DNA of 64,000 nucleotides from Alphaproteobacteria bacterium (GTDB taxonomy: Bacteria; Pseudomonadota; Alphaproteobacteria; Rickettsiales; JABCZZ01), in assembly GCA_035906055.1 (NCBI GenBank), contig JAMIFV010000005.1, positions 26,996 to 90,995 of the forward strand, given 5' to 3'. The notes beneath the pieces are model-generated. The model searched no databases and had not been told where the DNA came from. It saw only the letters and a list, made by a program, of their open reading frames with translations. Shown here piece by piece: positions 4,219 through 39,044 of the stretch; positions within the stretch are counted from its first letter, which is position 1; every line of letters begins with the position of its first letter. A program made the position numbers and the translations under genes.

Positions 4219-5367
4219 ATGCTAGATTCATACTATATGAACGAGCCTGTGCCCGAAAACCTGCATCTGTTTGCCGCCGGAATTGATCTGGACGCCGCCC
4301 ACAAGGCGCATATGCGCTGGCTTACCTCCGGCGGCAGGCAGGGAAAACGGCTGCATCTGCGCAATACCGACCTTGAAGGGCTGAACATGTCGGGCTTCAC
4401 GCTGGCGGAAGCATCGCTGCGCGGCATCGTGATACGCGACGTGGACCTCTCCGGCGCTGACCTGCGCGGGTCCGACCTTGCCGAAACCATGTTCGAGAAT
4501 GTGAACCTTAAAGGCGCGATGCTTAACTCGGCGTTGTTCATGGGCGCGCAGTTCGTCAATGTGAACTTTGAGGGGGCCGACCTGACCGGCGCCGACCTGC
4601 AGGGAGTCATGGCGCGCGATATCCGTTTCACAGGAGCGCGCATGAATAAATGCACGATGCGCGACGCCACCTTGCAGCATGCCGATTTTGCGCATGCGCA
4701 ATTGCGCGATACCATGCTGCGCGCGGTTTCCTGCATGGGGGCGCGGTTCGATAACGCCGACCTCGCCAATGCCGAATGCCGCGAAGGCGTGTTCGACTAT
4801 GCCAGTTTCTCGCATGCGAACGTGGATAACGTTATCTTTAAAGATGCATCCTTGCGCGGTGTGGACATCCACAACGTAAACTTCACCAAGGCGCATGACG
4901 TGGTGTTCGACGAACAGACGCAGGCCTTTATCAAGGAGCGCGCGCGGCTGGACGACCTCAACCAGCAACTCACCCTGCAGGTGTCGCGGCAGGAGAACCG
5001 CACGAAGATCCTGGAAGGCGAAAACACCGTGCTGCGCGCGCGCGAACGCACCAACCGCCTGCGCGAGGCGAGGCTGGAAGGGCTGATCTACAAGCTCAGC
5101 CGCGTCGCGTTCGCATACGGGCTTATCAGCATCGTATGGCTTGCGATCAGCGCGTTCCTGCTGTCATTCACCTATTCACGCTTCAGCCAGCTCGACTTCA
5201 GCCGCATCGCGGGCATCCTCGCGGGGGTGGGGCTGGTCATCATTCTTTCCTTCCTTTCTTTCTATTTTGCGATTAAGACTCGCAAAATTCTGTTTTCCAT
5301 GGCAGAAAAACCGGACCCTGATACCAACAACAACCAAAATTCTATGACGAAGCAGGAGTTACCATGA
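4219..5367 (+). CDS. pentapeptide-repeat protein with coiled-coil and C-terminal transmembrane segments
   Basis: Long run of A(D/N)LxG-type pentapeptide repeats (DLSGADLRGSDLAETMFENVNLKGAMLNSALF...). This is followed by a charged coiled region and hydrophobic helices (LISIVWLAISAFLL, VGLVIILSFLSFYFAI). Confidence 0.75.
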   Translation: MLDSYYMNEPVPENLHLFAAGIDLDAAHKAHMRWLTSGGRQGKRLHLRNTDLEGLNMSGFTLAEASLRGIVIRDVDLSGADLRGSDLAETMFENVNLKGAMLNSALFMGAQFVNVNFEGADLTGADLQGVMARDIRFTGARMNKCTMRDATLQHADFAHAQLRDTMLRAVSCMGARFDNADLANAECREGVFDYASFSHANVDNVIFKDASLRGVDIHNVNFTKAHDVVFDEQTQAFIKERARLDDLNQQLTLQVSRQENRTKILEGENTVLRARERTNRLREARLEGLIYKLSRVAFAYGLISIVWLAISAFLLSFTYSRFSQLDFSRIAGILAGVGLVIILSFLSFYFAIKTRKILFSMAEKPDPDTNNNQNSMTKQELP

Positions 5368-5909
5368 GCGATATAAAAGCAGTCTGCGTATTTTGCGGCG
5401 CAAGCAACAACGTGCCCACGCACTTTCTCGACATCGGCAAGACGTTTGGCAACATGCTGGTGCAGAACAATATCAAACTGGTCTATGGCGGCGGCGATTG
5501 CGGCATCATGGGCGCAGTGGCCAACTCCGTGCTCAAAGCCAAGGGCTATGTGACCGGCGTGTTCCCCCGCAGCCTGAAAGACCTCGAGTCCGAACATGCG
5601 AGCCTAAGCGAGATCATCATGGTGGAAAGCATGCATGAGCGCAAACGCATCATGTTCGAGCGTTCCGACGCCATCGTGGTGCTGCCCGGCGGCTTCGGCA
5701 CCATGGATGAAATGTTCGAGATCATCACCTGGAAACAGCTCCGCTTCCACCAGAAAAAGATCATCATCCTTAATCACAAGGGCTACTGGGATACGCTCAT
5801 CCACCTGATGGACAATATCATCGACATAGGCTTCGCCCGCGAAGAGGTGCGCTCGTTCTATCAGGTAGTGGATACGCCCGAAGGTGTAATTGACGCTTTA
5901 AAGGGCTAA
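5364..5909 (+). CDS. LOG family (TIGR00730) nucleotide phosphoribohydrolase
   Basis: VYGGGDCGIMG and the PGGFGTMDE signature. 4-nt overlap with the upstream gene. Confidence 0.85.
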   Translation: MSDIKAVCVFCGASNNVPTHFLDIGKTFGNMLVQNNIKLVYGGGDCGIMGAVANSVLKAKGYVTGVFPRSLKDLESEHASLSEIIMVESMHERKRIMFERSDAIVVLPGGFGTMDEMFEIITWKQLRFHQKKIIILNHKGYWDTLIHLMDNIIDIGFAREEVRSFYQVVDTPEGVIDALKG

Positions 5910-5912
5910 TTT

Positions 5913-5995
5913 ATCGGGGGCACGCTGCCCCCGATTTCGTTCCACGAAATCTCCCCTGCGGGGGCGTCGCGATAAAGCTCCTCCATGCTTACGGC
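5913..5995. repeat. family-1 palindromic repeat, half element
   Basis: Sequence atcgggggcacgctgcccccgatttcgttccacgaaatctcccctgcgggggcgtcgcgataaagctcctccatgc. The same arm recurs at 14316, 18187, 19253 and, inverted, at 24438. It starts with the perfect hairpin gggggca-cgc-tgccccc immediately after the LOG stop codon. Confidence 0.85.
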
Positions 5996-6136
5996 GTTTT
6001 GCCTGCTTGATTAAAAATACATATATTTAACAAATGATTATATACTTATGCATTTGTCACAAAACTGTCACTTGAGGGTGGGGGTGGGTGCGGGTAGAAT
6101 TGAATTGTTATAAAATAGCAGCTTAAAGGTTTTGAT

Positions 6137-8701: not shown

Positions 8702-10303
8702 TTATATTGTCTGCTGCATGGTTTGGGGTTGCTGGGACTGCGCGAGTACTTTCTGTTCAAAAGATTGCGCGGGGCGTTGTTGCATGCGTTCTTCCATCTT
8801 CGACACGTCTTCCGGTGTCACCAGATGCTGGATGCCTGCTTTCTTCACCATATCTTCCGGTAATTCCTGCGGCACCACATAGGGTTTGGCGGTGGGGTCG
8901 TTATGCACCACGTAGGCTTTATTATAGAGCCAGTCGGTGGTTTTGCTGAGCACCTTGATGGAGTCGCCGCCCACGCCGTACATCGCGCCGAACATGCCGC
9001 CAACGGTGGCGGATGCGCCCAGCGTCAGGGCGCTGATAGTGCCTGCGGCAATTTCCGCTGAGGCAGGGAGGATGGCGTTTAATGCAAGCACGCCGATGCT
9101 GGGCAGCAGCAACCCGACAGCCGCGCCGATAGCGCCCATCACCAAAGCGGATTTAAGGTTGAAGAATTTTTCTTTGACCGGCTTGGGCGCTTCCGGCGTA
9201 ATGCCGCGCTGGCGCAGTTCCTGATTGCGTTCGAATTCATTATCTATGGCGCGTGCCATGCTTTCGGCCCCGGCTTCACGTCCGGCATCGGAAAAGGCGC
9301 GCATGCCGAAGGAGGCGCCCACGGCTGCGAAGGCGGCTACCGCTTTGAATGCTGTAAGGCCTACAACAACTTCAGGTGCGATAAGCGCGGTTGCGCCGAA
9401 AGCTATGAGACCTACGGCGCCCGCGATTACCGCACCGGCGACGGCACCACCGGCAAGCCCGCGGAACAGGCCTTTCACCGCGCTTGCATAGATCTTGTTG
9501 TGGTATTCTTCTTCCAGCGAGAACATGCTCGACTGCCTGCGCAGGCGGTGCTCGGCGAGTTCCTTGTCATTTTCGATGCCTTTGAACTGCTCGCGGCCCA
9601 TATCGATGCCGCTATACATGCCCTTGGATTTGCCCCAGCTTGCAGCATCCACCTTATTGAATACGCCCTTAAGGTTGCTGCGGTCTATGCCGAAGGTGGC
9701 ACCCAGCGCGCCAAACGCTATGGCGGCACCTGCCGGGCCGCCCACTACGGCCAGCAAAGAGCTGCCGATAGTGAGGCTGTTGGCAAGCAGTGCGCCAACG
9801 CCCGCACCGATTGCGGCACCTGCAGCGCCAGATTTCCAGTTGAAGAGTTTACCTTTGTCGCGGTCCGCCGGGAACTGGAAGTGGTGGCCGCGCCCGTCCA
9901 TCATGAGTTTATCTTCGAGCGCTGCGGGTTCGTTATCCTTATAGACCGGGTCGAGCACGCGTGCGTGGCGCTCGGCCAGCCCTGCCGCGCGTGAAGCGGC
10001 GGCGGAACCGGCGGTGCCGTAAGTTTCCGCGCCGTGAACGGCAGCGATACCTGCCAGGCCAGCCACGGCAATGCCAAAACCCATTCCTGCAAGGCCCGCC
10101 ATCAGTGCGAGGCCTGCGCCAATGGCAGCGCCAACCACACCCCCCACCAGCACGCCGACCAGCATGCCGCGCACCCGGCCTTTGTAGGAAGACCAGTATT
10201 CGCGGTAGTAAGCCTGACGCGCGCGCTCATTCACCCGGTTGTAATCGATCGAGTCCGGGCGGTAGGGAGGCGTCGCTTGCGCTATAGGTTTTTGCGTTTC
10301 CAT
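8702..10303 (-). CDS. multi-module glycine-zipper membrane protein
   Basis: Four internally repeated Gly/Ala-rich TM-hairpin modules (for example VGGVVGAAIGAGLALMAGLAGMGFGIAVAGLAG and GAAGAAIGAGVGALLANSL...GGPAGAAIAFGALGATFG), separated by charged linkers. Confidence 0.6.
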   Translation of the reverse strand: METQKPIAQATPPYRPDSIDYNRVNERARQAYYREYWSSYKGRVRGMLVGVLVGGVVGAAIGAGLALMAGLAGMGFGIAVAGLAGIAAVHGAETYGTAGSAAASRAAGLAERHARVLDPVYKDNEPAALEDKLMMDGRGHHFQFPADRDKGKLFNWKSGAAGAAIGAGVGALLANSLTIGSSLLAVVGGPAGAAIAFGALGATFGIDRSNLKGVFNKVDAASWGKSKGMYSGIDMGREQFKGIENDKELAEHRLRRQSSMFSLEEEYHNKIYASAVKGLFRGLAGGAVAGAVIAGAVGLIAFGATALIAPEVVVGLTAFKAVAAFAAVGASFGMRAFSDAGREAGAESMARAIDNEFERNQELRQRGITPEAPKPVKEKFFNLKSALVMGAIGAAVGLLLPSIGVLALNAILPASAEIAAGTISALTLGASATVGGMFGAMYGVGGDSIKVLSKTTDWLYNKAYVVHNDPTAKPYVVPQELPEDMVKKAGIQHLVTPEDVSKMEERMQQRPAQSFEQKVLAQSQQPQTMQQTI

Positions 10304-12418: not shown

Positions 12419-13050
12419 TGTCACTCAAGCGATATACAGCATCAGCTATTATGTCGGTTGCCCTGCTAACGGCGGGCACGACGCTTGCGCAGGTGGATGC
12501 GCCGCCCACCACGTGGGAAGTGCTGCCGCAGGAAAGCAGCATCGAATGGACGGCCATATATACCGGCAAGCCCGTTACCGGCGGGTTCAGCAGTTTTACC
12601 TCCGATATCCGTTTCGATCCGCAGAAGCTGGATAAATCCAGCGTGCAGGTGAAGATAGACACCGCCAGGATCACCAGCGACGACAAGGACGCGGAATCTT
12701 CATTGCCGGGCGCTGAGTGGTTCAATGCCAGCGTGTTCCCGCATGCCGTGTTCGAGGCGAAGTCCTTTACCCATGTGGAAGATGAGAAATACCGTGCGGA
12801 AGGCACACTGACCATCGGTGAAAAGAAGAACAATGTAGTGCTGCCGTTCTCGGTGCATTTCTATCAGGATACGGAAGCAAGCGCCCCTGTGCGTTATGCG
12901 CAGATGGCGGCGGAAACCGTGATCAAGCGCTCTGAATTCGGCCTTGGCAAAGGCGAGTGGAGCAAAGCCGACCTCGTGCTGGATGATGTGAAAGTGACTA
13001 TCAACATCAAGGCCAAGGAAGCGGCACAGCCTAAAACGGTTACTCCCTGA
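12415..13050 (+). CDS. YceI family periplasmic protein
   Basis: Signal peptide ([17 protein letters not shown]), then a YceI-like core (SSIEWTA...V.GGFSSF...[10 protein letters not shown]...FPHAVFEA). Confidence 0.8.
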
Positions 13051-14306
13051 TGTTCTCACCGCTTGAACGCCTGATGGCATGGCGCTACCTGCGGGCAAGG
13101 AAGGCCGAGGGGTTTCTTTCGCTTATCACGGCATTCTCACTGCTTGGCATTGCGCTGGGCGTGGCGGCGCTGATTGTCATCACCTCGGTGATGAACGGCG
13201 TGAAGACCGAGATGCTCAGGCATTTCATCGGCTGGAGCGGGCATGTAAGCGTGTATGGCATGGGTGCGCCGATCGACCAGTATGATACGCTTGCGCAACG
13301 TATAAGGACGCAGAACGGCGTGATAAGCGCACATCCGCTGGTGGAAGGGCAGGTGATGGCCGCCGCCAACGGCCATAACAGCGGCGCGCAGGTGATGGCG
13401 CTGCGCTATGACGACCTGATGCAGAAGCAGCATATCAAAGACAAGATCACCGCAGGCAGCCTTGAAGATTTCGAGTCCGGCGAAGGCATCATCATCGGCC
13501 AGCGCATGGCGGAGAATTTCGGCCTGCAGGTGGGGGATTCATTGACGCTGATTTCGCCGGAAGGCCGCCAGACACTGGCGGGCATGATTCCGCGCCTGAA
13601 GTCTTATCCCGTCGTGGCCATTTTCAAGCTGGGCATGCATGCGTTCGACGCGGGCATGATCATCATGCCGTTTGCCGAAGCGCAGATCTATTTCAAGCTC
13701 AGTGATGGTGGGCAGGACAAGGTGACCGGCATCGAGGTGAATGTGGATAAGCCCTACGAAGCACGCGCAATTGCTGAAAAACTGGCAAGCGGGCTTGGTG
13801 GCCAGTATCGCCTCTATGACTGGCAGCAGAGCAACCGCACCGTATTCGAGGCGCTCACGATACAGCGCAACGTGATGTTCATCATCCTCACGCTTATCAT
13901 CGTGGTGGCGGCGTTCAATATCATCTCCAGCCTCATCATGCTGGTGAAGGACAAAGGGCGCGATATCGCCATTCTTCGCACGATGGGCGCGTCGCGCGCC
14001 AGCGTCACGCGTATCTTCATCAGCTGCGGCATGATCATCGGTGTGCTGGGCACGTTCATCGGGCTGGCGCTGGGGCTTTTGCTGGCGGTGAATGTGGACA
14101 ATATCCGCATATGGCTTGAAAAAGCGTCCGGCGGTAAAATACTTGCAGAACAGCTTTACTTCCTCTCCACACTGCCTGCCGAGGTGGATATGGTGCAGGT
14201 GGCTGCGGTCACGGCCATGTCGCTCACGCTTTCTTTCCTTGCTACGCTTTACCCGGCACGCCGTGCGGCGCGCCTCGATCCGGCGGAGGCCTTGAGATAT
14301 GAGTGA
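13050..14306 (+). CDS. lolC: lipoprotein-releasing ABC transporter permease LolC/E
   Basis: 418 aa with MacB/FtsX-type topology. N-terminus LMAWRYLRARKAEGFLSLI and C-terminus LATLYPARRAARLDPAEALRYE are typical of LolC/E. Confidence 0.9.
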   Translation: MFSPLERLMAWRYLRARKAEGFLSLITAFSLLGIALGVAALIVITSVMNGVKTEMLRHFIGWSGHVSVYGMGAPIDQYDTLAQRIRTQNGVISAHPLVEGQVMAAANGHNSGAQVMALRYDDLMQKQHIKDKITAGSLEDFESGEGIIIGQRMAENFGLQVGDSLTLISPEGRQTLAGMIPRLKSYPVVAIFKLGMHAFDAGMIIMPFAEAQIYFKLSDGGQDKVTGIEVNVDKPYEARAIAEKLASGLGGQYRLYDWQQSNRTVFEALTIQRNVMFIILTLIIVVAAFNIISSLIMLVKDKGRDIAILRTMGASRASVTRIFISCGMIIGVLGTFIGLALGLLLAVNVDNIRIWLEKASGGKILAEQLYFLSTLPAEVDMVQVAAVTAMSLTLSFLATLYPARRAARLDPAEALRYE

Positions 14307-14315
14307 TTTATTATG

Positions 14316-14582
14316 TGGGGGGCACGCTGCCCCCATTTACGCTCCGCGTAAATTCCCCTGCGGGGTCGTCGCTTCGCTCCTCCATGCATGCGGCTTCATT
14401 GTTGCCAATTGGGGAAACGCTTTCCTCAATTTTGCTCTACGGGTGCGTCGTGAAGAACGCCTCCGTGCACACGGCATTGCTCTGGAACAGAAATTGTCAT
14501 TCCCGCGCAGGCGGGAATCCATCTTTATTAAGATAGTCGTGCCGCAGGCGCTGCGATGGATCCCGGCCTTCGCCGGGATGAC
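14316..14582. repeat. pile-up of palindromic repeats between lolC/E and lolD
   Basis: Contains a family-1 arm (14316-14395), a degenerate second arm (14408-14478), gtcattcccgcgcaggcgggaatcc (14496-20) and ggatcccggccttcgccgggatgac (14558-82). The ORFs across it (SFPRRRESI, VIPAKAGIH, WIPAFAGMT) are typical translations of repeats. Confidence 0.85.
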
Positions 14583-15294: not shown

Positions 15295-15514
15295 GGGTCA
15301 GGACTCATGACTTCCCTCTCCTGCAAAGCGGGAGAGGGTTGCGCAGGCTTTGCTGCGCAGCAGCTTAGCCGAAGCTGGGTGAGGGTGAATGTAAACGCGC
15401 CCCCTCACCTCGGTTTGCCTAAGGGCTTAGCTAAAGCAGCTAAACCCAAGGCAAACGCGTCCTCTCCCTCAAGGGGAGAAGAAAAGTAAGCAAGAGTGTA
15501 ATGAGTCCTGAGCC
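15295..15514. mobile_element. 220-bp MITE (family 2), copy 1, flanked by TA
   Basis: 14-bp terminal inverted repeats gggtcaggactcat / atgagtcctgagcc, flanked by TA (15293-94 and 15515-16). More than 90% identical by eye to the reverse complement of 38825-39044. The interior consists of nested hairpins. Confidence 0.85.
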
Positions 15515-16356
15515 TAATCAATTACCACATCCAGCCCGATATCCACATTGGGGGCGGAGTGGGTGAGGCGGCCAACCGAGATATAATCCACGCCGGTTTC
15601 CGCGATGGCGCGCACAGTCTCAAGTGAAACGCCGCCGGAGGCTTCCAGCTTCGCTTTGCCTTTGGCAAGCTGCACGGCCTCGCGCATCTGCGCATGGTTC
15701 ATGTTATCCAGCATGATGCGGGTCGCGCCTGCGCCGAGCGCTTCCTTCACCTGTTCCAGTGTGTCGCATTCGATTTCCACCGGCAGTTGTTTGGTGTTGC
15801 CTGCAAAGGTCTTGGCAAGAACCTGCCTGATGCCGCCACAGAGCGCGATGTGATTATCCTTGATGAGGATACCGTCATCCAGCCGCATGCGGTGATTCTG
15901 CGCGCCGCCCGCCTTCACGGCGAATTTATCCAGCATGCGCAGGCCGGGCATGGTCTTGCGTGTGTCGAGTATGATCGCGTCCGTGCCTCTCACTTCCTCC
16001 ACATAACGCGCGGCCAGTGTGGCCACGGCGCTCATGCGTTGCAGCAGGTTAAGCGCGGTGCGCTCCGCCGTGAGCATGGCGCGCGCAGGGCCGCTCACTT
16101 CAATGAGCCTGTCGCCTTTGACAGCTTTAGCACCGTCTTTCACCAGCAGCTTGCAGTTAATGGCTTTATTAACCGTAGCGAATACCTGTTTAACCACTTC
16201 GCCGCCACACATGATAACCGGTTCACGTGTAACGAAAACCAGCGTTGCGGTGGCATTTTCGGGCACCAGCAGGCTGGCGGTGGCGTCACCTGTGCCGATA
16301 TCCTCGGCCAGCGCACCTGAAATAATCCGCTCTACTTCCTTGAAATCCAAATCCAT
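15514..16356 (-). CDS. nadC: nicotinate-nucleotide diphosphorylase (quinolinate phosphoribosyltransferase)
   Basis: 280 aa with [27 protein letters not shown] and [12 protein letters not shown]. The stop codon TAG spans the MITE/TA junction. Confidence 0.9.
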
Positions 16357-16399
16357 AGGCTTATTCTACCTTTCCCCGGGATTTTTAAAGCATTACGCA

Positions 16400-18181
16400 A
16401 TGACCGTCAAAGCCTATACGCCTGTGATACACAAATATGACGCTGCCATTATCGGCGCAGGCGGGGCTGGGCTGCGGGCGGCCCTGGCGGCGGCGGAAGG
16501 CGGCGTGCGCGTGGCGGTGATAACCAAGGTTCCGCCCACCCGCAGCCATACGGTGGCGGCGCAGGGGGGCATCAACGCGGCGCTGGGCAACCGTGGCCCT
16601 GACGACTGGCGCTGGCATATGTATGACACGGTGCGCGGGGCGGACTGGCTGGGCGATCAGGACGCCATTGCCTATATGTGCAGGCATGCGCCCGCCGCCG
16701 TGCGCGAGCTGGAGCACATGGGCGTGGCGTTCACGCGGTCTGACGATGGCAGCATCTACCAGCGCGCGTATGGCGGGCAGGCTACCGATTTCGGCAAAGG
16801 CCCGCTGGCTTACCGCGCCTGTGCGGCAGCCGACCGCACGGGGCATGCGATACTTCACACGCTTTACCAGCAATGCCTGCGCGCGGGCGTGCAGTTCTTC
16901 GTGGAGCATATGGCGATCGACCTCATGTTCGACCGCGAAGGGGCTTGCGCGGGCGTGCTGACGCTACAGCCGGAAACGGGCGAACTGCATCTCTTCCGCG
17001 CGCACCACACGGTGCTGGCGACAGGCGGCTTCGGCCAGGTTTATGCGCAGACCACCGCATCCACTATCTGCACCGGCGACGGCAACGGCATGATCCTGCG
17101 TGCTGGCCTGCCGCTGCAGGATATGGAATTCATCCAGTTCCATCCCACCGGGCTTTACGGCACGGGCGTGCTGATAACCGAAGGCGCGCGCGGGGAAGGC
17201 GGCTTCCTTGTCAACGGCCTGGGCGAGCGTTTCATGGAACGTTATGCACCCAGTTACCTTGACCTTGCCTCGCGTGACGTTATCAGCCGCGCGATCGTGC
17301 AGGAGATACGCGAGGGAAGGGGCGCAGGCCCCAAGAAAGACCACGTGCTGCTGATGATGGGGCATCTGGGTAAAGACGTTATCGCACAGAAACTGCCGAG
17401 CATCGCGGCTATTGTGAAAACCTTCACCGGGCTGGATGTGAACCGCTCCGCCATTCCCGTACTGCCGTCAGTGCATTACACTATGGGCGGCATTCCCACG
17501 CGCGCCACTACGCAGGCGCTCAATGAGCGCGGTGAGGTTGTGTGCGGGCTGTATGCTATCGGCGAAACGGCCTGCGGCTCGGTGCATGGCGCTAACCGCC
17601 TTGGCTGTAATTCGCTGCTCGATCTCATCGTATTTGGCAAAGCGGTGGGCGAACAGGTGGGGGCCGCACAGAACGGCGCTTACGCCACGCTTGACCAGAA
17701 CGTGCTCGACCGGTCGCTCCGGCATCTGGATGCGTTGCGCTACAGCAGGGGGCGCGATACGCCGCAGAGGATACGCAAGCAGATGCAGAATTCCATGCAG
17801 CATCATGCGGGCATCTTCCGCGACCTGCATACGCTGACCGGCGGTCTCACGGTGCTGGATGTGTTATGGCAGCAATACCGTCAATCGCTGAACGTACGCG
17901 AGCAGGGCCTCATATGGAATAACGACCTGCTGGAAGCGCTGGAGCTTGATAACCTCATGCGCCAGTCCATAGCCGTCATAGCTTCCGCTTTGCACAGGCG
18001 AGAGAGCCGCGGCGCGCATTTCCGCATGGATCACCCTGAGCGTGATGACGAAAACTGGCTGAAGCACACAGTGTTCATGATGGATGATACGGGCAAGTTC
18101 CGCCTTGCCGAGCGTGCGGTCTGCCTTGATTCGGGTGTTGAAGGTACGCCTGTATTTGCGCCGGAGATGAGAAGGTATTAG
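16400..18181 (+). CDS. sdhA: SdhA-type flavoprotein (succinate dehydrogenase/fumarate reductase flavoprotein family) sitting in the NAD cluster
   Basis: The ORF track extends the N-terminus to 16019 over nadC; the real start is the ATG at 16400 ([29 protein letters not shown]). Carries the covalent-FAD motif [18 protein letters not shown], plus [32 protein letters not shown] and a C-terminal ...PEMRRY. These features are SdhA-like rather than NadB-like. Confidence 0.75.
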
Positions 18182-18186
18182 TTTAT

Positions 18187-18368
18187 AGGGGGAAACGCTT
18201 CCCCCAATTTTACTCCGCAAAATTTCCCCCGCGGGGTCGTCACGAAGAGTTCCTCCATGCCTATTGCAAAGCACTGGAATAGACATCGGTGCAGTATGCG
18301 TGGAGGAGTTTTGCACGACGACCTCTTTAGAGGGGGAGCGGTAGCGGGGGCGGGACGCCCCCCAAAAT
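18187..18368. repeat. family-1 palindromic element, full length (both arms)
   Basis: Left arm agggggaaacgcttcccccaattttactccgcaaaatttcccccgcggggtcgtcacgaagagttcctccatgc. Inverted right arm gcgtggaggagttttgcacgacgacc...gggggcgggacgcccccc. Confidence 0.85.
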
Positions 18369-18372
18369 AAAA

Positions 18373-18831
18373 CTAACGGGCAGGACTCAACGAAGCAGGG
18401 AATGCGGCAGAGCTGTTGCGTTGCTGTTCTTTCGGTACGTCATCAAGCGTATAGACGCTGTCAGGCGTAGGGGTTGGGTTCATGCCCAGCGGGCGTTTGT
18501 CGATGAAGCGGTAAGAGGCGTTGGGGTTGGACTCGGCGATATCGGCAGCGGTGCGCGGTTTGCGTGGGGCAGTGGCCGCAGGCGTTGCCTGCTGTGTGTA
18601 AGTTTCCGCCAAGGAAAGACCCGCCTTGTTCTGTGGCTTTGGCAGCACCCTCAGGCTTCTCAGTGGCTGCACGCCCGGCACCGGTGGTGATATGCGGTTG
18701 GTGCGGCTGCCGTCATGCACATAGTCTGCGGTAGCATTCGCATCAATGATAACAGGCGCGTTCGTGTTGGCCGCCAGTGCGCAACCGGCAGCAAGCGTGA
18801 TAGCGCAGACGGGTATAATTACTTTTTTCAT
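18373..18831 (-). CDS. hypothetical lipoprotein
   Basis: ORF trimmed to MKKVIIPVCAITLAAGC (lipobox). The rest is Pro/Thr/Ala-rich. Confidence 0.5.
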   Translation of the reverse strand: MKKVIIPVCAITLAAGCALAANTNAPVIIDANATADYVHDGSRTNRISPPVPGVQPLRSLRVLPKPQNKAGLSLAETYTQQATPAATAPRKPRTAADIAESNPNASYRFIDKRPLGMNPTPTPDSVYTLDDVPKEQQRNSSAAFPASLSPAR

Positions 18832-18937
18832 AACGGTGCCAGCGTAGCGGCAATCTGTCATGTTGCAAAAGAAAAAGGCGGAACCTTGCGATCCCGCCTT
18901 CATTTTTAGCCTAGGTACAACAAGAGAGACTTAGCGC

Positions 18938-19135: not shown

Positions 19136-19252
19136 AAGAAAAACTCCAGTGTGATTCAGGTTTGTCAGACCGCTACGTACTTCGTAGTCCGCAACGTCTG
19201 GTGAGGTAAGACTATGCCGCTTCCGCATGGATTTCAAATTACATATTTGTAA

Positions 19253-19452
19253 TGGGGACTAGCCATCCCCATTTGCGCTCTGCGCAAATTCCCCTGCGTA
19301 AATCCCGTAAGCGTACTGGAACGGTGCCGTAGTGATGGAGGAGTGCTTCACGACGACCCCGCTGGGATGAATTCGCGGAGCGAAGAAGGGGAAGCGTTTC
19401 CCTTAATTAAAAGAGGTGCCGGAGGCAAGAGGGGAAAGCGTTTCCCCTAATT
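19253..19452. repeat. family-1 palindromic element, full length with duplicated terminal hairpin
   Basis: The left arm is tggggactagccatccccatttgcgctctgcgcaaattcccctgcg. The inverted arm is gatggaggagtgcttcacgacgaccccgc. Two terminal hairpins follow, aggggaagcgtttccctt and aggggaaagcgtttcccct. Confidence 0.8.
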
Positions 19453-19456
19453 ATAA

Positions 19457-20434
19457 TTAATCCTTCGCAGCGGTAGCAGCCACGGGAATGGATTTGGACA
19501 TTTCCAGCATCCTCTGCAACGGTTTACGCGCAGCGTCCATTAATGACGCAGGCAATACCAGTTCCGGGCTGCCGCTCTTCATGCAGGCGAGCAGTTTTTC
19601 CATCGTGTTGAGTTTCATGTACTGGCAGTTATTGCACGACACACATGCGCCGCCGATGATGCCCGGCGCTTCGATGAATGTGCTGCCCGGAGATTTCGCG
19701 CGCATCTGGTGGATGATGCCCGGTTCCGTGAGCACGATGAATTCCTTGCCTGGATTATCCACCGTGTATTTGAGCAGCGACGAGGTGGAACCGATATGGT
19801 GTGCGTATTTCAGGATATCGCCGGGGCATTCAGGGTGTGCGATGATGATGGCGTCCGGGTGGCGCGTGCGCAGTTTCACCAGTTCCTGCTCGCTGAAGCG
19901 CTCATGCACCATGCAGGAGCCGTTCCACAGCACCATGTCGCGCCCGGTCTTTTTGGAAAGGTAGGAGCCGAGATATTTATCCGGCGCGAAAATAATCTTT
20001 TGTGATTCAGGTATCTGGCGGATGATGGATTCCGCATTGGTGGAGGTGACGATGACATCGGAAAGCGCCTTCACCTCTGCCGAGCAGTTGATGTAGGTGA
20101 CGACCATGTGATCGGGGTGCTGCGCCTTGAATGCGGCAAACTCTTTTGGCGGGCAGGAGTCTTCCAGCGAGCAGCCCGCTTTCAGGTCAGGCAGGATGAC
20201 TTTTTTGCCGGGGTTGAGTACCTTTGCGCCCTCGGCCATGAACTTCACGCCGCAGAACACGATCACGTCTGCAGTGGTGGCGGCTGCCTTGCGCGCGAGG
20301 TCGAGCGAGTCGCCTACGAAGTCGGCGATGTCCTGAATGTCGTCTTCCTGATAATAATGCGCGAGGATGACCGCGTTCATTTCCTTGCGCAGTTTCTTGA
20401 TCTCGGTTTCGGTGACTTGAGCGGGGTTGAGCAT
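19457..20434 (-). CDS. nadA: quinolinate synthase
   Basis: 325 aa with ILAHYYQ, GDSL.L, VFCGV.FMAE, the Cys ligand context [10 protein letters not shown], and HPECP. Confidence 0.9.
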
Positions 20435-24104: not shown

Positions 24105-25199
24105 ATGCCCCGCAACACAAATGATTTCAAGGCAAAGCTTCCATCCGTCCACCGCTCCATAGCGAAGTGGTATAAAGCGCATGGACGGCACCATCTGCCG
24201 TGGCGGCAAAAGGGCAATCCGTATCACGTGTATATCAGCGAGGTGATGCTGCAGCAAACGCAGGTGAAAACAGTGCTGGAGCGTTATTATTATCCGTTTC
24301 TCAAAAGCTTTCCCACACTCGCTGCGCTTGCTGCTGCACCGCAGCAGGATGTGATGAAGGCATGGGAAGGGCTTGGTTATTACACACGCGCGCGCAACCT
24401 GCATAATGCCGCAAAACAAGTTGTTCACGATGCTGCGTGCGTGGAGGAGCTCTACCCGCGACGACCCCGCAGGGGTGAATCGGCGGAGCCGAGAGGGGGC
24501 AGCGTGCCCCCCGTAAGCGTAGCGTTACCAGCTACGGTAGAGGGGTTGCTGGCGCTGCCGGGCATCGGGCGCAACACCGCGCATGCGGTGGCAAGCTTCG
24601 GTTACGGCGTGCCCGTGCCGGTGATGGAGGCCAACGTTAAGCGCGTGCTGGCCCGCGTGTTCGCCATGGAGGCGCTTGACGACAAACTGCTATGGCAGTA
24701 TGCGGAAAGCCTGCTCAATACCCAAAATCCGTTCGACCATAATCAGGCGATGATGGATATCGGTTCTCTGGTCTGCACCAGGCGAGCGCCGCGCTGCGGT
24801 GAGTGTCCGCTTTCCGGGATATGTGCAGGCAAGGGTGACCCGGAAGCGTATCCTGAACCCAAGAAAGCCAGGCAGATGCCCACACGAGAGCGAGTGATCG
24901 TGGTGTATAGGGACAAAACGGGCAAAGTATGGCTCAAACAGCGCGAAACGCGGTTTCTGGGCGGGTTATGGGGTTTTGCAGAATATGAAGAAGCGCCTAA
25001 GCTTGTCGGAGCGGAGAGGCTGGGGCAGGTGCGGCAGGTCTACAGCCATTTTACGCTGGAGGCCAAAGTGTTGCTGGCAAGGGTTGAAACTGCGCCAGAG
25101 ACGGGCGGGGAGTGGGTGAATCAAGAAGCTTTGGGCGAATTTCCCCTTTCGCGTGCGGACGCCAAAGTGCGGGCTCTTCTTCAGGCTTTCAGCCAGTAA
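24105..25199 (+). CDS. mutY: A/G-specific adenine DNA glycosylase (with in-frame repeat insertion)
   Basis: LPWR....PY.V.ISEVMLQQTQV, GLGYYTRARNLH, HhH LPGIGRNTAHAV, the 4Fe-4S cluster CxxxxxxxCxxCxxxxxC (CTRRAPRCGECPLSGIC) and a C-terminal NUDIX-like domain. Confidence 0.9.
   Translation: MPRNTNDFKAKLPSVHRSIAKWYKAHGRHHLPWRQKGNPYHVYISEVMLQQTQVKTVLERYYYPFLKSFPTLAALAAAPQQDVMKAWEGLGYYTRARNLHNAAKQVVHDAACVEELYPRRPRRGESAEPRGGSVPPVSVALPATVEGLLALPGIGRNTAHAVASFGYGVPVPVMEANVKRVLARVFAMEALDDKLLWQYAESLLNTQNPFDHNQAMMDIGSLVCTRRAPRCGECPLSGICAGKGDPEAYPEPKKARQMPTRERVIVVYRDKTGKVWLKQRETRFLGGLWGFAEYEEAPKLVGAERLGQVRQVYSHFTLEAKVLLARVETAPETGGEWVNQEALGEFPLSRADAKVRALLQAFSQ
24438..24513. repeat. family-1 repeat arm embedded in the mutY coding sequence
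   Basis: gcgtggaggagctctacccgcgacgaccccgcaggggtgaatcggcggagccgagagggggcagcgtgccccccg is nearly identical to the reverse complement of 5913-5995. It is translated in frame as ~CVEELYPRRPRRGESAEPRGGSVPP. Confidence 0.85.
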
Positions 25200-25272: not shown

Positions 25273-25347
25273 GACCCCTTCGTCTAGCGGTTAGGACATC
25301 GCCCTTTCACGGCGGTAACACGGGTTCGAGTCCCGTAGGGGTCACCA
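25273..25347 (+). tRNA. tRNA-Glu (anticodon UUC)
   Basis: Manual cloverleaf: acceptor GACCCCT/AGGGGTC, anticodon stem TCGCC/GGCGG with loop CTTTCAC, T arm ACGGG-TTCGAGT-CCCGT, discriminator A and encoded CCA. Confidence 0.9.
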
Positions 25348-25595: not shown

Positions 25596-26438
25596 ATGTC
25601 AGTTGTTTTCCGTTTCGCCCCAAGCCCCAATGGCAGGCTGCATCTGGGGCATGCCTATTCGGCGCTGCTGAACTATCGGCTGGCGGGGCAGCAGGGCGGG
25701 CGTTTCCTGCTGCGCATTGAGGATATTGATACCACGCGCTGCACGCCTGAGTTCACGCAGCATGTGTTGGGCGACCTGCGCTGGCTGGGGCTGAACTGGG
25801 AAGAGCCGGTGCGTGTGCAGTCAGAACATTTCGCGGATTACCGGCAGGCGCTTGCCCCGCTGAAAACAAAAGGGCTGGTCTATCCCTGCTTCTGTTCACG
25901 CACGCAGATTTCGGCAGTAAGCACTGGCACTGACCCCGACGGCGCACCGCTTTACCCCGGCACATGCCGCGCAATTAGCCGGGCAGATGCCCAAGCGCGC
26001 ATCGGCAAGGGGGAGCGGCATAGCTGGCGGCTGGATATGCGGGGCGCGCTTGCCGCCGCGCCGGGGCCTTATGAAGGCACCCGATTTGCACTGCCGTCTT
26101 TCATGCAGGAGACATTCACAGCGCAGCCGCAGCGTTGGGGGGACGTGATACTCGCGCGCAAGGAAACGCCGACCAGCTATCATCTCTCCGTGGTGGTGGA
26201 CGACGCGTTGCAGGGCGTCACCCATATCGTGCGCGGTGCCGACCTTGAAGCCGCCACTGACCTGCACCTGTTGTTGCAGAAGCTGCTCGGGCATGCTGCG
26301 CCATTATATCACCATCACGCGCTGATCAAAAGCGGGGAGGGCGAAAAGCTTTCCAAAAGCAGGCATAGCGAAACGCTGGCCGACCTGCGTGCGCAAGGCG
26401 CAACGCCGGAAGAGGTAACAGCGGCAATAAAGCTTTAG
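25596..26438 (+). CDS. gluQ: glutamyl-Q tRNA(Asp) synthetase
   Basis: 280-aa truncated GluRS paralog with FAPSPNGRLHLGHA (HIGH-like), YHLSVVVDD and KLSKS. Confidence 0.85.
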   Translation: MSVVFRFAPSPNGRLHLGHAYSALLNYRLAGQQGGRFLLRIEDIDTTRCTPEFTQHVLGDLRWLGLNWEEPVRVQSEHFADYRQALAPLKTKGLVYPCFCSRTQISAVSTGTDPDGAPLYPGTCRAISRADAQARIGKGERHSWRLDMRGALAAAPGPYEGTRFALPSFMQETFTAQPQRWGDVILARKETPTSYHLSVVVDDALQGVTHIVRGADLEAATDLHLLLQKLLGHAAPLYHHHALIKSGEGEKLSKSRHSETLADLRAQGATPEEVTAAIKL

Positions 26439-38660: not shown

Positions 38661-38824
38661 TACTTATATTAATTTTTCCTTAAACGACCAGCGCAATTGG
38701 TAAGGATTAGATATGCTTTTAATGCATAGCAAGAAATATATGCCTTGTTAGTCATGCATAAAACGGAGTGTTGTTACTGTCCTGATAGATAAGCATCTAC
38801 AGCAACTTATCCTAAAAATGCTTA

Positions 38825-39044
38825 GGCTCAGGACTCATTGAACTCTTGCTTGCTTTTCCTCTCCCTCTTGAGGGAGAGGACGCGTTTGCCTTGGGTTTAG
38901 CTGCTTTAGCTAAGCCCTTAGGCAAACCGAGGTGAGGGGGCATTTACATTCACCCTCACCCAGCTACGGCTAAGCTGCTGCGCAGCAAAGCCTGCGCAAC
39001 CCTCTCCCGCTTTGCAGGAGAGGGGAATTAATGAGTCCTGACCC
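38825..39044. mobile_element. 220-bp MITE (family 2), copy 2, inverted relative to copy 1, flanked by TA
   Basis: Terminal inverted repeats ggctcaggactcat / atgagtcctgaccc, with TA at 38823-24 and 39045-46. The reverse complement aligns end to end with 15295-15514. Confidence 0.85.

Follow-up and report, generated by a model that had tools for sequence, protein, structure and literature searches.

An in-frame copy of a dispersed three-hairpin repeat in mutY of an uncultured alphaproteobacterium, and related copies in other genes

The window analysed here, a stretch of 64,000 nucleotides (nt) from contig JAMIFV010000005.1 of the alphaproteobacterial assembly GCA_035906055.1, contains a mutY gene (A/G-specific adenine glycosylase) whose open reading frame (ORF) harbours a full-length copy of a dispersed repeat of about 97 nt. 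Very probably, a copy of this repeat entered mutY in frame, in a loop of the protein that tolerates it, as an instance of a family-wide behaviour resembling that of the Rickettsia palindromic elements (RPEs). The ORF is unbroken across the copy and encodes there the peptide ...AAKQVVHDAACVEELYPRRPRRGESAEPRGGSVPPVSVALPATVEGLLALPGIG..., as the initial annotation of this DNA had stated. According to an alignment of 11 copies (A3), the element comprises a variable left end, the motif GGAGGAG, a short spacer, the motif CGACGAC, three hairpins (consensus CCCC-GCA-GGGG for hairpin 1, forms such as ATTTCGC-GGA-GCGAAAT for hairpin 2, and GGGGGCA-GCG-TGCCCCC for hairpin 3) and an A/T-rich tail. Features of the window are listed in Table 1, where 'sense' denotes the orientation with the GGAGGAG end first.

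Membership of the mutY segment in the repeat family is supported by several searches. A profile made (nhmmer) from five intergenic copies of the window, with the mutY copy left out, matches 24427-24515 (E = 8.5e-15, 50.5 bits), and R1, a covariance model made from aligned copies and used to scan the window, its orthologues and metagenomes, matches the copy over its full length; a repeat finder ties it to others near 14.3, 18.2 and 19.3 kb. The homology of this segment to the reverse complement of an intergenic repeat is thereby upheld, but in three respects the initial description needs amendment: pairwise alignment with the reverse complement of 5895-6010 gives a column identity of 79% (73% for the core), which is not near-identity; the segment is no mere arm of a palindrome, being a complete unit with three local hairpins; and it is wider than 24438-24513, the part that differs from empty alleles extending from 24420 to 24524. 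The mutY copy is oriented opposite to the copy at 5904-6001. A strict pattern of 24 positions (22 fixed bases and two two-fold degenerate positions) matches four of seven window copies and nothing in 100 shuffles, and R1 places the window total at 7-9 copies, all of them outside genes besides the one in mutY and all within 5.9-24.5 kb; with the model filters off, no copy was found in the remaining ~39 kb (25000-64000).

The three hairpins are supported by covariation. RNAalifold recovers all three from 11 copies, 8 of 15 pairs having changed in a compensatory manner; in the alignment of 54 copies from all sources (A5), standard pairs fill 97.9% of pair cells and both-sided changes affect 10 of 15 pairs, values for pairing and covariation that none of 500 shuffles attains, slid controls being only 42-73% paired. 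The G+C content of the element is 49-72%. No Rfam family matches it, whether the whole window is searched at gathering thresholds or the repeat regions at permissive E values, the only hits being two tRNAs and chance matches; a database-wide search with the peptide encoded by the element, as a padded 41-residue profile, returned nothing at E<=1. The idea that the element is adapted to coding was dropped: copies are free of stops in 2.69 of six frames, compared with 2.20 in shuffled sequence (4.22 and 3.61, respectively, for the core), and openness so near the shuffled level is therefore mostly a by-product of G+C richness.

Comparison with orthologues delimits the insertion, as the initial annotation had proposed. 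A search for MutY homologues yielded a tight clade with identities of 65-80%, in which P0002, P0003 and P0005 have an extra segment of the same length and in the same place as the window protein and the segment of P0007 is longer. The site is empty, reading AAKQ-xKGx-LP, in P0004, P0006 and P0008 and in all of the more distant homologues that were aligned. At the DNA level (site alignment of seven orthologues and the window), empty alleles read ...AAGCAGG-CAAAAGGCATG-TTGCCGGAT..., and five alleles are filled at the same codon: the window, L001, L003, L004 and L005, the last being the gene for P0007. In the first four, 105 nt stand in place of 12 and both junctions are identical (in the window protein, …AAKQVVHDAAC… on the left and …PPVSVALPATVEG… on the right), and L005 shares the left junction and has 45 nt extra. 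The orthologous segments are themselves full-length matches to R1 (78-93 bits, E 1e-18 to 1e-22), and no orthologue lacking the repeat carries such a segment. The net gain of 31 residues over close empty-site orthologues slightly exceeds the 25-30 first estimated, within which the gain over MutY of Geobacillus stearothermophilus (27) does fall. The additional 45 nt of L005, at about 1106-1150, follow the element (..ATGTATAATCAAAGGGGAGCGCAACCATGGCGGCGCTTG..), end near AATTATAAT, and resemble in arrangement the window composite at 19320-19452, in which a hairpin-3-only fragment comes after a full copy; they may be part of a longer element variant or a second partial insertion.

The presence of the segment at one position in five orthologues would also be expected of an ancestral, lineage-specific MutY loop, its likeness to the intergenic repeats being coincidental or the repeats being derived from mutY. 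Such an origin is extremely improbable in view of the match obtained with intergenic copies alone, the more than 50 copies in unrelated genes and spacers of several assemblies, and the identity of the empty state with the outgroup state (xKGx-LP). In addition, a neighbour-joining tree (326 gap-free MutY columns, 300 bootstraps) nests empty-site orthologues among filled ones: the P0001-P0007 clade has 99% bootstrap support, {P0001, P0002, P0003, P0004}, in which P0004 is empty among filled alleles, has 96%, and {P0006 empty, P0007 filled} has 81%. There is just as little reason to favour an artefact, either a chimeric assembly or a sequence removed from the product as an intron, intein or translational bypass. 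The source is an uncultured organism and repeats are classic sites of misassembly, but five assemblies, independent and drawn from different samples, share the insertion and local misassembly is therefore excluded; furthermore, the segment falls far below the size of an intein or a group I/II intron, belongs to no Rfam family, and in every filled allele is stop-free and a multiple of three in length.

Differences among the filled alleles bear on whether the element is translated. When the window copy is set against those of L001, L003 and L004, its spacer behind GGAGGAG is four bases longer and a single base is missing ahead of hairpin 3; the 46 nt between these two indels are therefore read in another frame (YPRRPRRGESAEPR in the window, RRDDPAGGFVRSAN in the orthologue), both versions rejoining at ...GGSVPP. 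Similar frame switches are found in the copies within leuS and a hemN-like gene. Compensation of a frameshift is understandable only in an element that ribosomes read; it would be needless if the element were spliced out or bypassed, and therefore argues against both, and it also shows that selection keeps the ORF open rather than preserving the peptide sequence. Since its frame has stayed open, the mutY element is, by all indications of the DNA, translated.

The host gene looks functional. It is free of frameshifts, and outside the insert its ratio of nonsynonymous to synonymous divergence (dN/dS) is 0.10-0.16 in all 28 pairs of alleles, filled or empty, with synonymous divergence (dS) of 0.8-2, pointing to purifying selection on an intact gene rather than to the frameshifted or inactive gene that would have counted against the initial annotation. 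Pfam identifies HhH-GPD, HHH, EndIII_4Fe-2S and NUDIX_4 domains, MutY chains in the PDB match at E~1e-49 (sequence search), and the Fe-S cysteines, the NUDIX domain and the catalytic Glu are all present (E46, equivalent to E37 of Escherichia coli and E43 of G. stearothermophilus). The G. stearothermophilus protein aligns in two blocks (residues 3-106 of the window protein with 6-105, and 148-309 with 120-288) that are separated by 41 residues in the window protein versus 14 in the reference. At the position of the catalytic Asp (D138 in E. coli, D144 in G. stearothermophilus), the window protein has E175, in the motif MEANVKRV (codon 24627-24629). Among the 120 MutY homologues listed, 111 have E-A-N at this place, two have D-A-N and seven show no match to the motif, and E-A-N is invariant in a 72-sequence MutY alignment, with or without the repeat; Glu-Ala-Asn in place of the reference Asp-Gly-Asn thus seems to be a feature of a whole alphaproteobacterial MutY clade, unrelated to the insertion.

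An AlphaFold2 model of the window MutY, built on 72 homologues, resembles a normal MutY, with a mean predicted local distance difference test score (pLDDT) of 92.8, a predicted template modelling score of 0.88, and Foldseek matches to MutY-DNA complexes at template modelling (TM) scores of 0.80-0.86. In this model a long helix (93-116) reaches into the insert by about nine residues and gives way to coil at 117-144 (block pLDDT 74/65/64 across the insert), after which come the helices of the helix-hairpin-helix (HhH), in agreement with the initial placement of the insert just before the HhH motif; the insert, for which the initial annotation had proposed a check for a surface loop, is modelled as a loop of low confidence. 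The 31 added residues are most likely a flexible surface loop that MutY tolerates, a passenger peptide and not a new functional module. Di Nocera et al. raised the idea of altered activity for repair proteins tagged by repetitive extragenic palindromic (REP) sequences (PMC3733652), and the insertion could likewise have been selected for changing MutY, by weakening repair of 8-oxoguanine:A pairs and producing a mild mutator, or by supplying a basic loop that contacts DNA. The nearness of the insert to the first HhH helix (five residues upstream), the Arg-rich window peptide (RRPRRG...PRGG), the occurrence of other copies in DNA-metabolism genes (priA, xseA) and the excess of repair genes among REP-tagged ORFs (PMC3733652) all fit this idea, which is nevertheless very unlikely: the peptide differs between filled alleles, being acidic (DDPAGE) in orthologues and basic (RRPRRG) in the window, dN/dS is equal in filled and empty alleles, and most hosts of the family (carA, der, leuS, kdsB, the hemN-like gene, an ABC ATPase gene) are not repair genes.

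The insertion in mutY is one of many. The strict pattern, run on one genome per species, matched only two MAGs (metagenome-assembled genomes) named 'Alphaproteobacteria bacterium', from Barre Woods forest soil, and one Actinoplanes; the latter match is rejected by R1 and is due to chance. In metagenomes of the Joint Genome Institute (JGI), the pattern matched 33 stretches, in which R1 finds 44 copies. Of 43 metagenomic copies, 13 are in frame within 11 genes (ORFs recognised by Pfam). In carA, three copies were found in all: antisense copies lie in the linker between the two domains in two organisms, and one of these genes has in addition a sense copy in its N-terminal domain. Other copies are located between the two GTPase domains of der, within the C-terminal domain of priA, immediately 5' of the HIGH region of leuS, and in kdsB, where the cytidylyltransferase domain is split; xseA carries an antisense copy, the hemN-like radical-SAM gene and the ABC ATPase gene carry sense copies, a gene for a pyridine-nucleotide oxidoreductase of 1154 aa has two, and hemF is a weaker candidate host. 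Both genes with two copies have one in each orientation (L016 carA, 53-149 and 468-564; L039 oxidoreductase, 9117-9214 and 9582-9677). The RPE-like, in-frame behaviour attributed to the repeat from mutY alone is therefore matched by the same element in at least ten other conserved genes of related contigs, and in-frame insertion appears to be a general property of the family in related uncultured alphaproteobacteria.

The peptides encoded by these copies recur: ..DDPAGE..RS..GGSVPP.. from sense copies and ..GGTLPPS.LR..SPAGSS..PPR.H from antisense copies. On the sense strand, among the frames that give recurrent peptides, only the consensus GGSVPP reading stays stop-free through the A/T-rich tail, which fits the observation that all sense coding copies end in that frame. 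Coding copies are richer in G+C than non-coding ones (0.63 versus 0.58, p=5e-4). The distribution of the family is patchy, as indicated by the absence of any copy from ~63 kb around pyrG in close relatives (83-85% PyrG identity), versus the 7-9 copies in the 64-kb window; synteny around pyrG and mutY is not conserved in those relatives. Among the named matches listed, the best homologues are from MAGs labelled 'Rickettsiales bacterium' (80% identity for PyrG, 54% for MutY) and 'Alphaproteobacteria bacterium', and the matches listed include no named Rickettsia species, all being MAGs labelled Rickettsiales, Alphaproteobacteria or Pseudomonadota/Proteobacteria bacterium.

Non-coding copies are placed and oriented in a consistent manner. 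A converging ORF of at least 120 aa, with its stop codon in the range -12 to +48 nt from hairpin 3 and mostly within 12 nt, adjoins 30 of the 36 non-coding copies, and only 8 of 36 have a gene end on the opposite side. Between convergent genes, copies form facing pairs (e.g., 18176-18273 and 18285-18374), each with hairpin 3 toward its own gene. This position and polarity fit a stem-loop of the REP type in the 3' untranslated region and suggest a role in formation or stability of transcript 3' ends. The first 8 nt after hairpin 3 contain a mean of 3.2 T in non-coding copies and 1.7 T in six antisense coding copies (mRNA strand; p=0.004), and in the mutY copy hairpin 3 is followed by CGUAAGCG, which has no U-tract; the orientation of the mutY copy and the fewer T of antisense coding copies fit selection against terminator-like copies inside genes. 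A role of the element in termination as such is weakly supported.

The probable course of events begins with a repeat whose usual site is right after a stop codon, with the G5/C5 hairpin beside the stop. One copy would have entered mutY in the orientation that leaves no U-tract after the strong hairpin, turning 4 codons into 35, in the loop that links the first HhH helix to the preceding long helix, which ends near residue 116. Selection would have maintained the frame, the +4 and -1 indels within the element shifting 46 nt into another frame and then restoring it.

Several points weigh against this account or complicate it. Presence of the insert in the mature protein is a prediction from the DNA sequence, and what the AlphaFold2 model shows is that the insert is poorly predicted, nothing further; an effect on DNA binding is possible, because the insert ends five residues before the first HhH helix. 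A simple terminator scan passes only one window copy (18188-18205), and the tandem pair at 14305-14481 is flanked by the genes for a LolC/E-like permease and for its ABC ATPase, probably two cistrons of one operon. Filled alleles are monophyletic in none of the 300 bootstraps, and a single ancestral insertion was rejected on these grounds as a sufficient account; at least three events are needed, in which the loop could have gained the element repeatedly, lost it precisely, or had one allele exchanged for another by recombination. Simple excision is disfavoured by the outgroup-like xKGx codons, which are present in empty alleles and gone from the window, L001, L003 and L004; in L005 they may survive as SKNYN. 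Finally, all 75 pair cells are intact in the five mutY-borne copies despite a dS of ~1-2 between their hosts, and two pairs of hairpin 2 show 3-4 pair types among these copies with none broken, which a purely neutral passenger does not predict.

Selection on nucleic-acid structure, gene conversion and recent independent insertions would each produce such persistence of hairpins. If the first applies, the hairpins might serve in cis within mutY, by slowing ribosomes, setting mRNA half-life, or marking a site of processing or recombination, and the peptide would be a by-product. This proposal gains from the integrity of all 15 modelled pairs, with compensatory changes in hairpins 2 and 3, over host dS of 0.8-2, from the retention of the stems while the peptide frame varies between alleles, and from the fact that the five copies were found by protein similarity and not by the element pattern, so that their intactness is no effect of ascertainment. 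It is still unlikely, since gene conversion by intact paralogues or repeated recent insertions at the site would give the same pattern, three close orthologues do without the element, and the orthologous mutY-borne copies are no more alike (62-85% identity) than the window copy and its own paralogues (57-73%). A broader proposition, that hairpins are actively maintained in coding DNA and that one and the same MutY loop has undergone three or more separate fillings or emptyings, pointing to a structure-specific mechanism of insertion and excision precise enough to keep genes in frame or to a function in cis such as translation pacing or mRNA decay, is somewhat speculative and has perhaps one chance in several of being right. 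Insertion of the repeat in frame into a tolerant loop of MutY, with a passenger peptide, is the reading retained here.

Among known systems the closest in behaviour are the RPEs, of which RPE-1 to RPE-10 (Ogata et al. 2000, 2002) are considered here as summarised in PMC10969869 and PMC3733652; in Rickettsia conorii, nearly half of the copies from three of the ten RPE families are situated in ORFs as in-frame fusions (PMC10969869). Like RPEs, the 97-nt element is a short dispersed hairpin repeat with many copies in frame in conserved and apparently functional genes, some of them hit twice, as well as non-coding copies; its insertion sites would similarly be loops or linkers (a low-confidence coil in MutY, regions between Pfam domains in CarA and Der); and its host is alphaproteobacterial, with 'Rickettsiales bacterium' MAGs as nearest named relatives. 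Unlike RPEs, which are ~150 bp in R. conorii (PMC10969869), it is GC-rich and has three separate short hairpins, its non-coding copies are strictly placed and oriented beside stop codons, and its hosts are uncultured bacteria outside the genus Rickettsia, partly from forest-soil mini-metagenomes (PMC7065516), that possess thiC, nadA/B and carA.

REPs tagged with GTAG or CGTC have been described within ORFs of Opitutus terrae, Thauera, Xanthomonas, Stenotrophomonas, Erythrobacter and Sphingopyxis (Di Nocera, De Gregorio and Rocco 2013, PMC3733652), where they encode 20-30 extra residues in hosts of which many act in replication or repair; RPE-4 and RPE-6 of R. conorii are CGTC REPs (PMC3733652). 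The mutY insertion is consequently not the second example of repeat-driven peptide insertion that it was at first taken to be, in-frame REPs and ERIC (enterobacterial repetitive intergenic consensus; cited in PMC10969869) having been published already from outside Rickettsia. By definition, a tagged REP is a single 20-40-nt palindrome whose 8-9-bp stem directly follows GTAG or CGTC (or TGTC/CCTC) and encloses a loop of 4-5 nt, with a short CCA-like tail (PMC3733652). The element shares with tagged REPs its palindromic nature, its occurrence singly, as dimers or in groups, and the in-frame extra residues, the CGTC type being commonest in alphaproteobacteria; as in CGTC REPs, hairpin 2 has an 8-bp stem that starts A-T/T-A, and CGTC occurs beside hairpin 1 on the complementary strand. 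It differs in its 97-nt length, three different hairpins, GGAGGAG block, absence of a tag directly 5' of a stem and absence of a CCA tail: on either strand, the four bases that precede hairpin 2 are CCCC or GGGR, and the sole CGTC lies on the complementary strand, 3' of hairpin 1. A 97-nt unit with three hairpins, none of them with a tag directly 5' of its stem, falls outside the structural definition of tagged REPs.

Intragenic ERIC and other small mobile sequences of enterobacteria (Delihas 2007, to the extent cited in PMC10969869) offer another parallel, ERIC in that account being a hairpin repeat of ~100-130 nt, mostly intergenic and transcribed, and at times located in ORFs where it adds peptide. 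In contrast to the 97-nt element, ERIC as so described has terminal inverted repeats (TIRs) and is classed as a miniature inverted-repeat transposable element (MITE), and its hosts belong to a different phylum-level group. The left end of the element (GGTGCCGTATGCGTGGAGGAG or GCGTGGGTACGCGGAGGAG) is not complementary to its right end (CCCCCC and the A/T-rich tail), and no conserved or duplicated flank that would indicate a target-site duplication (TSD) was found in 50 aligned copies or between filled and empty mutY sites, very short duplications being possible; lacking a TIR or TSD, it is ruled out as a MITE. No Y1 transposase, the IS200/IS605-type enzyme (RAYT) whose gene is flanked by tagged REPs, was present among the ORFs run through Pfam, the window and the other loci having had no systematic Y1 transposase screen. 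Viral contigs gave no match to the element, and hence no link to phages is indicated. Stem-loops right after stop codons and facing pairs between convergent genes are shared with REP and BIME (bacterial interspersed mosaic element) repeats, such as E. coli REP and SPRITE of Streptococcus pneumoniae (listed in PMC10969869), from which, as from terminator-like repeats, the element differs in that just one window copy has a U-tract that passes the terminator scan. Apparently, then, it is an undescribed repeat family taking part in a known kind of event, likened to RPEs on the basis of behaviour and description.

In-frame repeat insertion being already known, no new biological principle is established; what merits attention is the combination of filled and empty alleles, a compensated frameshift, hairpins persisting in coding DNA and a strict association with stop codons. 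Behaviour in the style of RPEs reaches beyond reduced, AT-rich genomes to GC-rich uncultured alphaproteobacteria that keep thiC, nadA/B and carA. Filled and empty alleles of one loop in close relatives amount to a clean natural experiment, in which coding DNA has kept its hairpins even though synonymous divergence is saturated. For annotation, low-complexity loops of ~30 residues (…DDPAGE..RS..GGSVPP… or …GGTLPPS.LR..SPAGSS…) are to be expected in housekeeping proteins of this lineage and are not errors, and they will disturb alignments and trees.

Table 1. Location of mutY, its repeat copy, and other copies of the element in the window.
Feature	Position	Strand	Description	Basis
mutY (A/G-specific adenine glycosylase)	24105..25199	+	364 aa, intact ORF hosting the element	ORF list, Pfam, PDB, AlphaFold2, dN/dS
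Segment in place of 4 ancestral codons	24420..24524	+	residues 106-140, VVHDAACVEELYPRRPRRGESAEPRGGSVPPVSVA, 35 codons, net +31 residues	filled versus empty alignments (DNA, protein)
Full-length repeat copy in mutY	24426..24523	+	sense, GGAGGAG end first	R1 88.9 bits, E~1e-21, model positions 1-97
Motifs GGAGGAG (24443-24449) and CGACGAC (24459-24465)	24443..24465	+	spacer 4 nt longer than in L001, L003, L004	A3, A5, site alignment
Hairpin 1, CCCC-GCA-GGGG	24465..24475	+		RNAalifold; 97.5% of pairs kept in 54 copies
Hairpin 2, TCGGC-GGA-GCCGA	24480..24492	+	strongest covariation	all 5 pairs with both-sided change in 54 copies
Hairpin 3, GGGGGCA-GCG-TGCCCCC	24495..24511	+	end adjoining the neighbour's stop codon in non-coding copies	
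HhH motif LPGIGRNTA of MutY	24555..24581	+	10 codons 3' of insert	Pfam HHH residues 142-165; PDB MutY alignment
Non-coding copy	5904..6001	-	hairpin 3 begins 7 nt past stop of LOG-family gene 5364-5909	R1 94.5 bits
Non-coding copy	14305..14400	-	tail overlaps stop of LolC/E-like permease gene 13050-14306	R1 99.5 bits
Degenerate tandem second copy	14402..14481	-	without hairpin 1 and part of hairpin 2	R1 45.2 bits, A3
Non-coding copy	18176..18273	-	after stop of NadB-like gene 16019-18181; terminator scan match 18188-18205	R1 90.4 bits
Non-coding copy	18285..18374	+	faces 18176-18273; hairpin 3 beside stop of convergent gene 18373-18903 (-)	R1 70.6 bits
Weak or partial copy	19242..19325	-		R1 27.3 bits, E=1e-5
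Non-coding copy	19320..19415	+	downstream of nadA (19457-20434, -)	R1 85.8 bits
Hairpin-3-only fragment	19431..19447	+	after copy 19320-19415	R1 14.8 bits

Downstream of mutY, a tRNA-Glu(TTC) gene at 25273-25347 (74 nt 3' of mutY) is followed by a truncated gene resembling glutamyl-tRNA synthetase (GluQ-RS type, tRNA-synt_1c) at 25596-26438; this neighbourhood is probably coincidental. The NadB-like ORF at 16019-18181 (L-aspartate oxidase/FAD_binding_2) is listed as 720 aa and its Pfam domain starts at residue 141, indicating either a long N-terminal extension or a start codon called too far upstream. Two other repeats are present in the window. A single CGTC-1/dRS3-type REP (TGTC ATTCCCGC GCAG GCGGGAAT CCA) at 14496-14521, right after the tandem 97-nt copies, has the features published for CGTC-tagged REPs (PMC3733652) and differs in sequence from the 97-nt element. 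A second, unrelated intergenic repeat of ~210-225 nt, at 15299-15523 and, inverted, at 38816-39040 (88-97% complementary), is MITE-like, with TIR-looking ends (GGTCAGGACTCATGA ... TAATGAGTCCTGAGCC) and several small internal palindromes.

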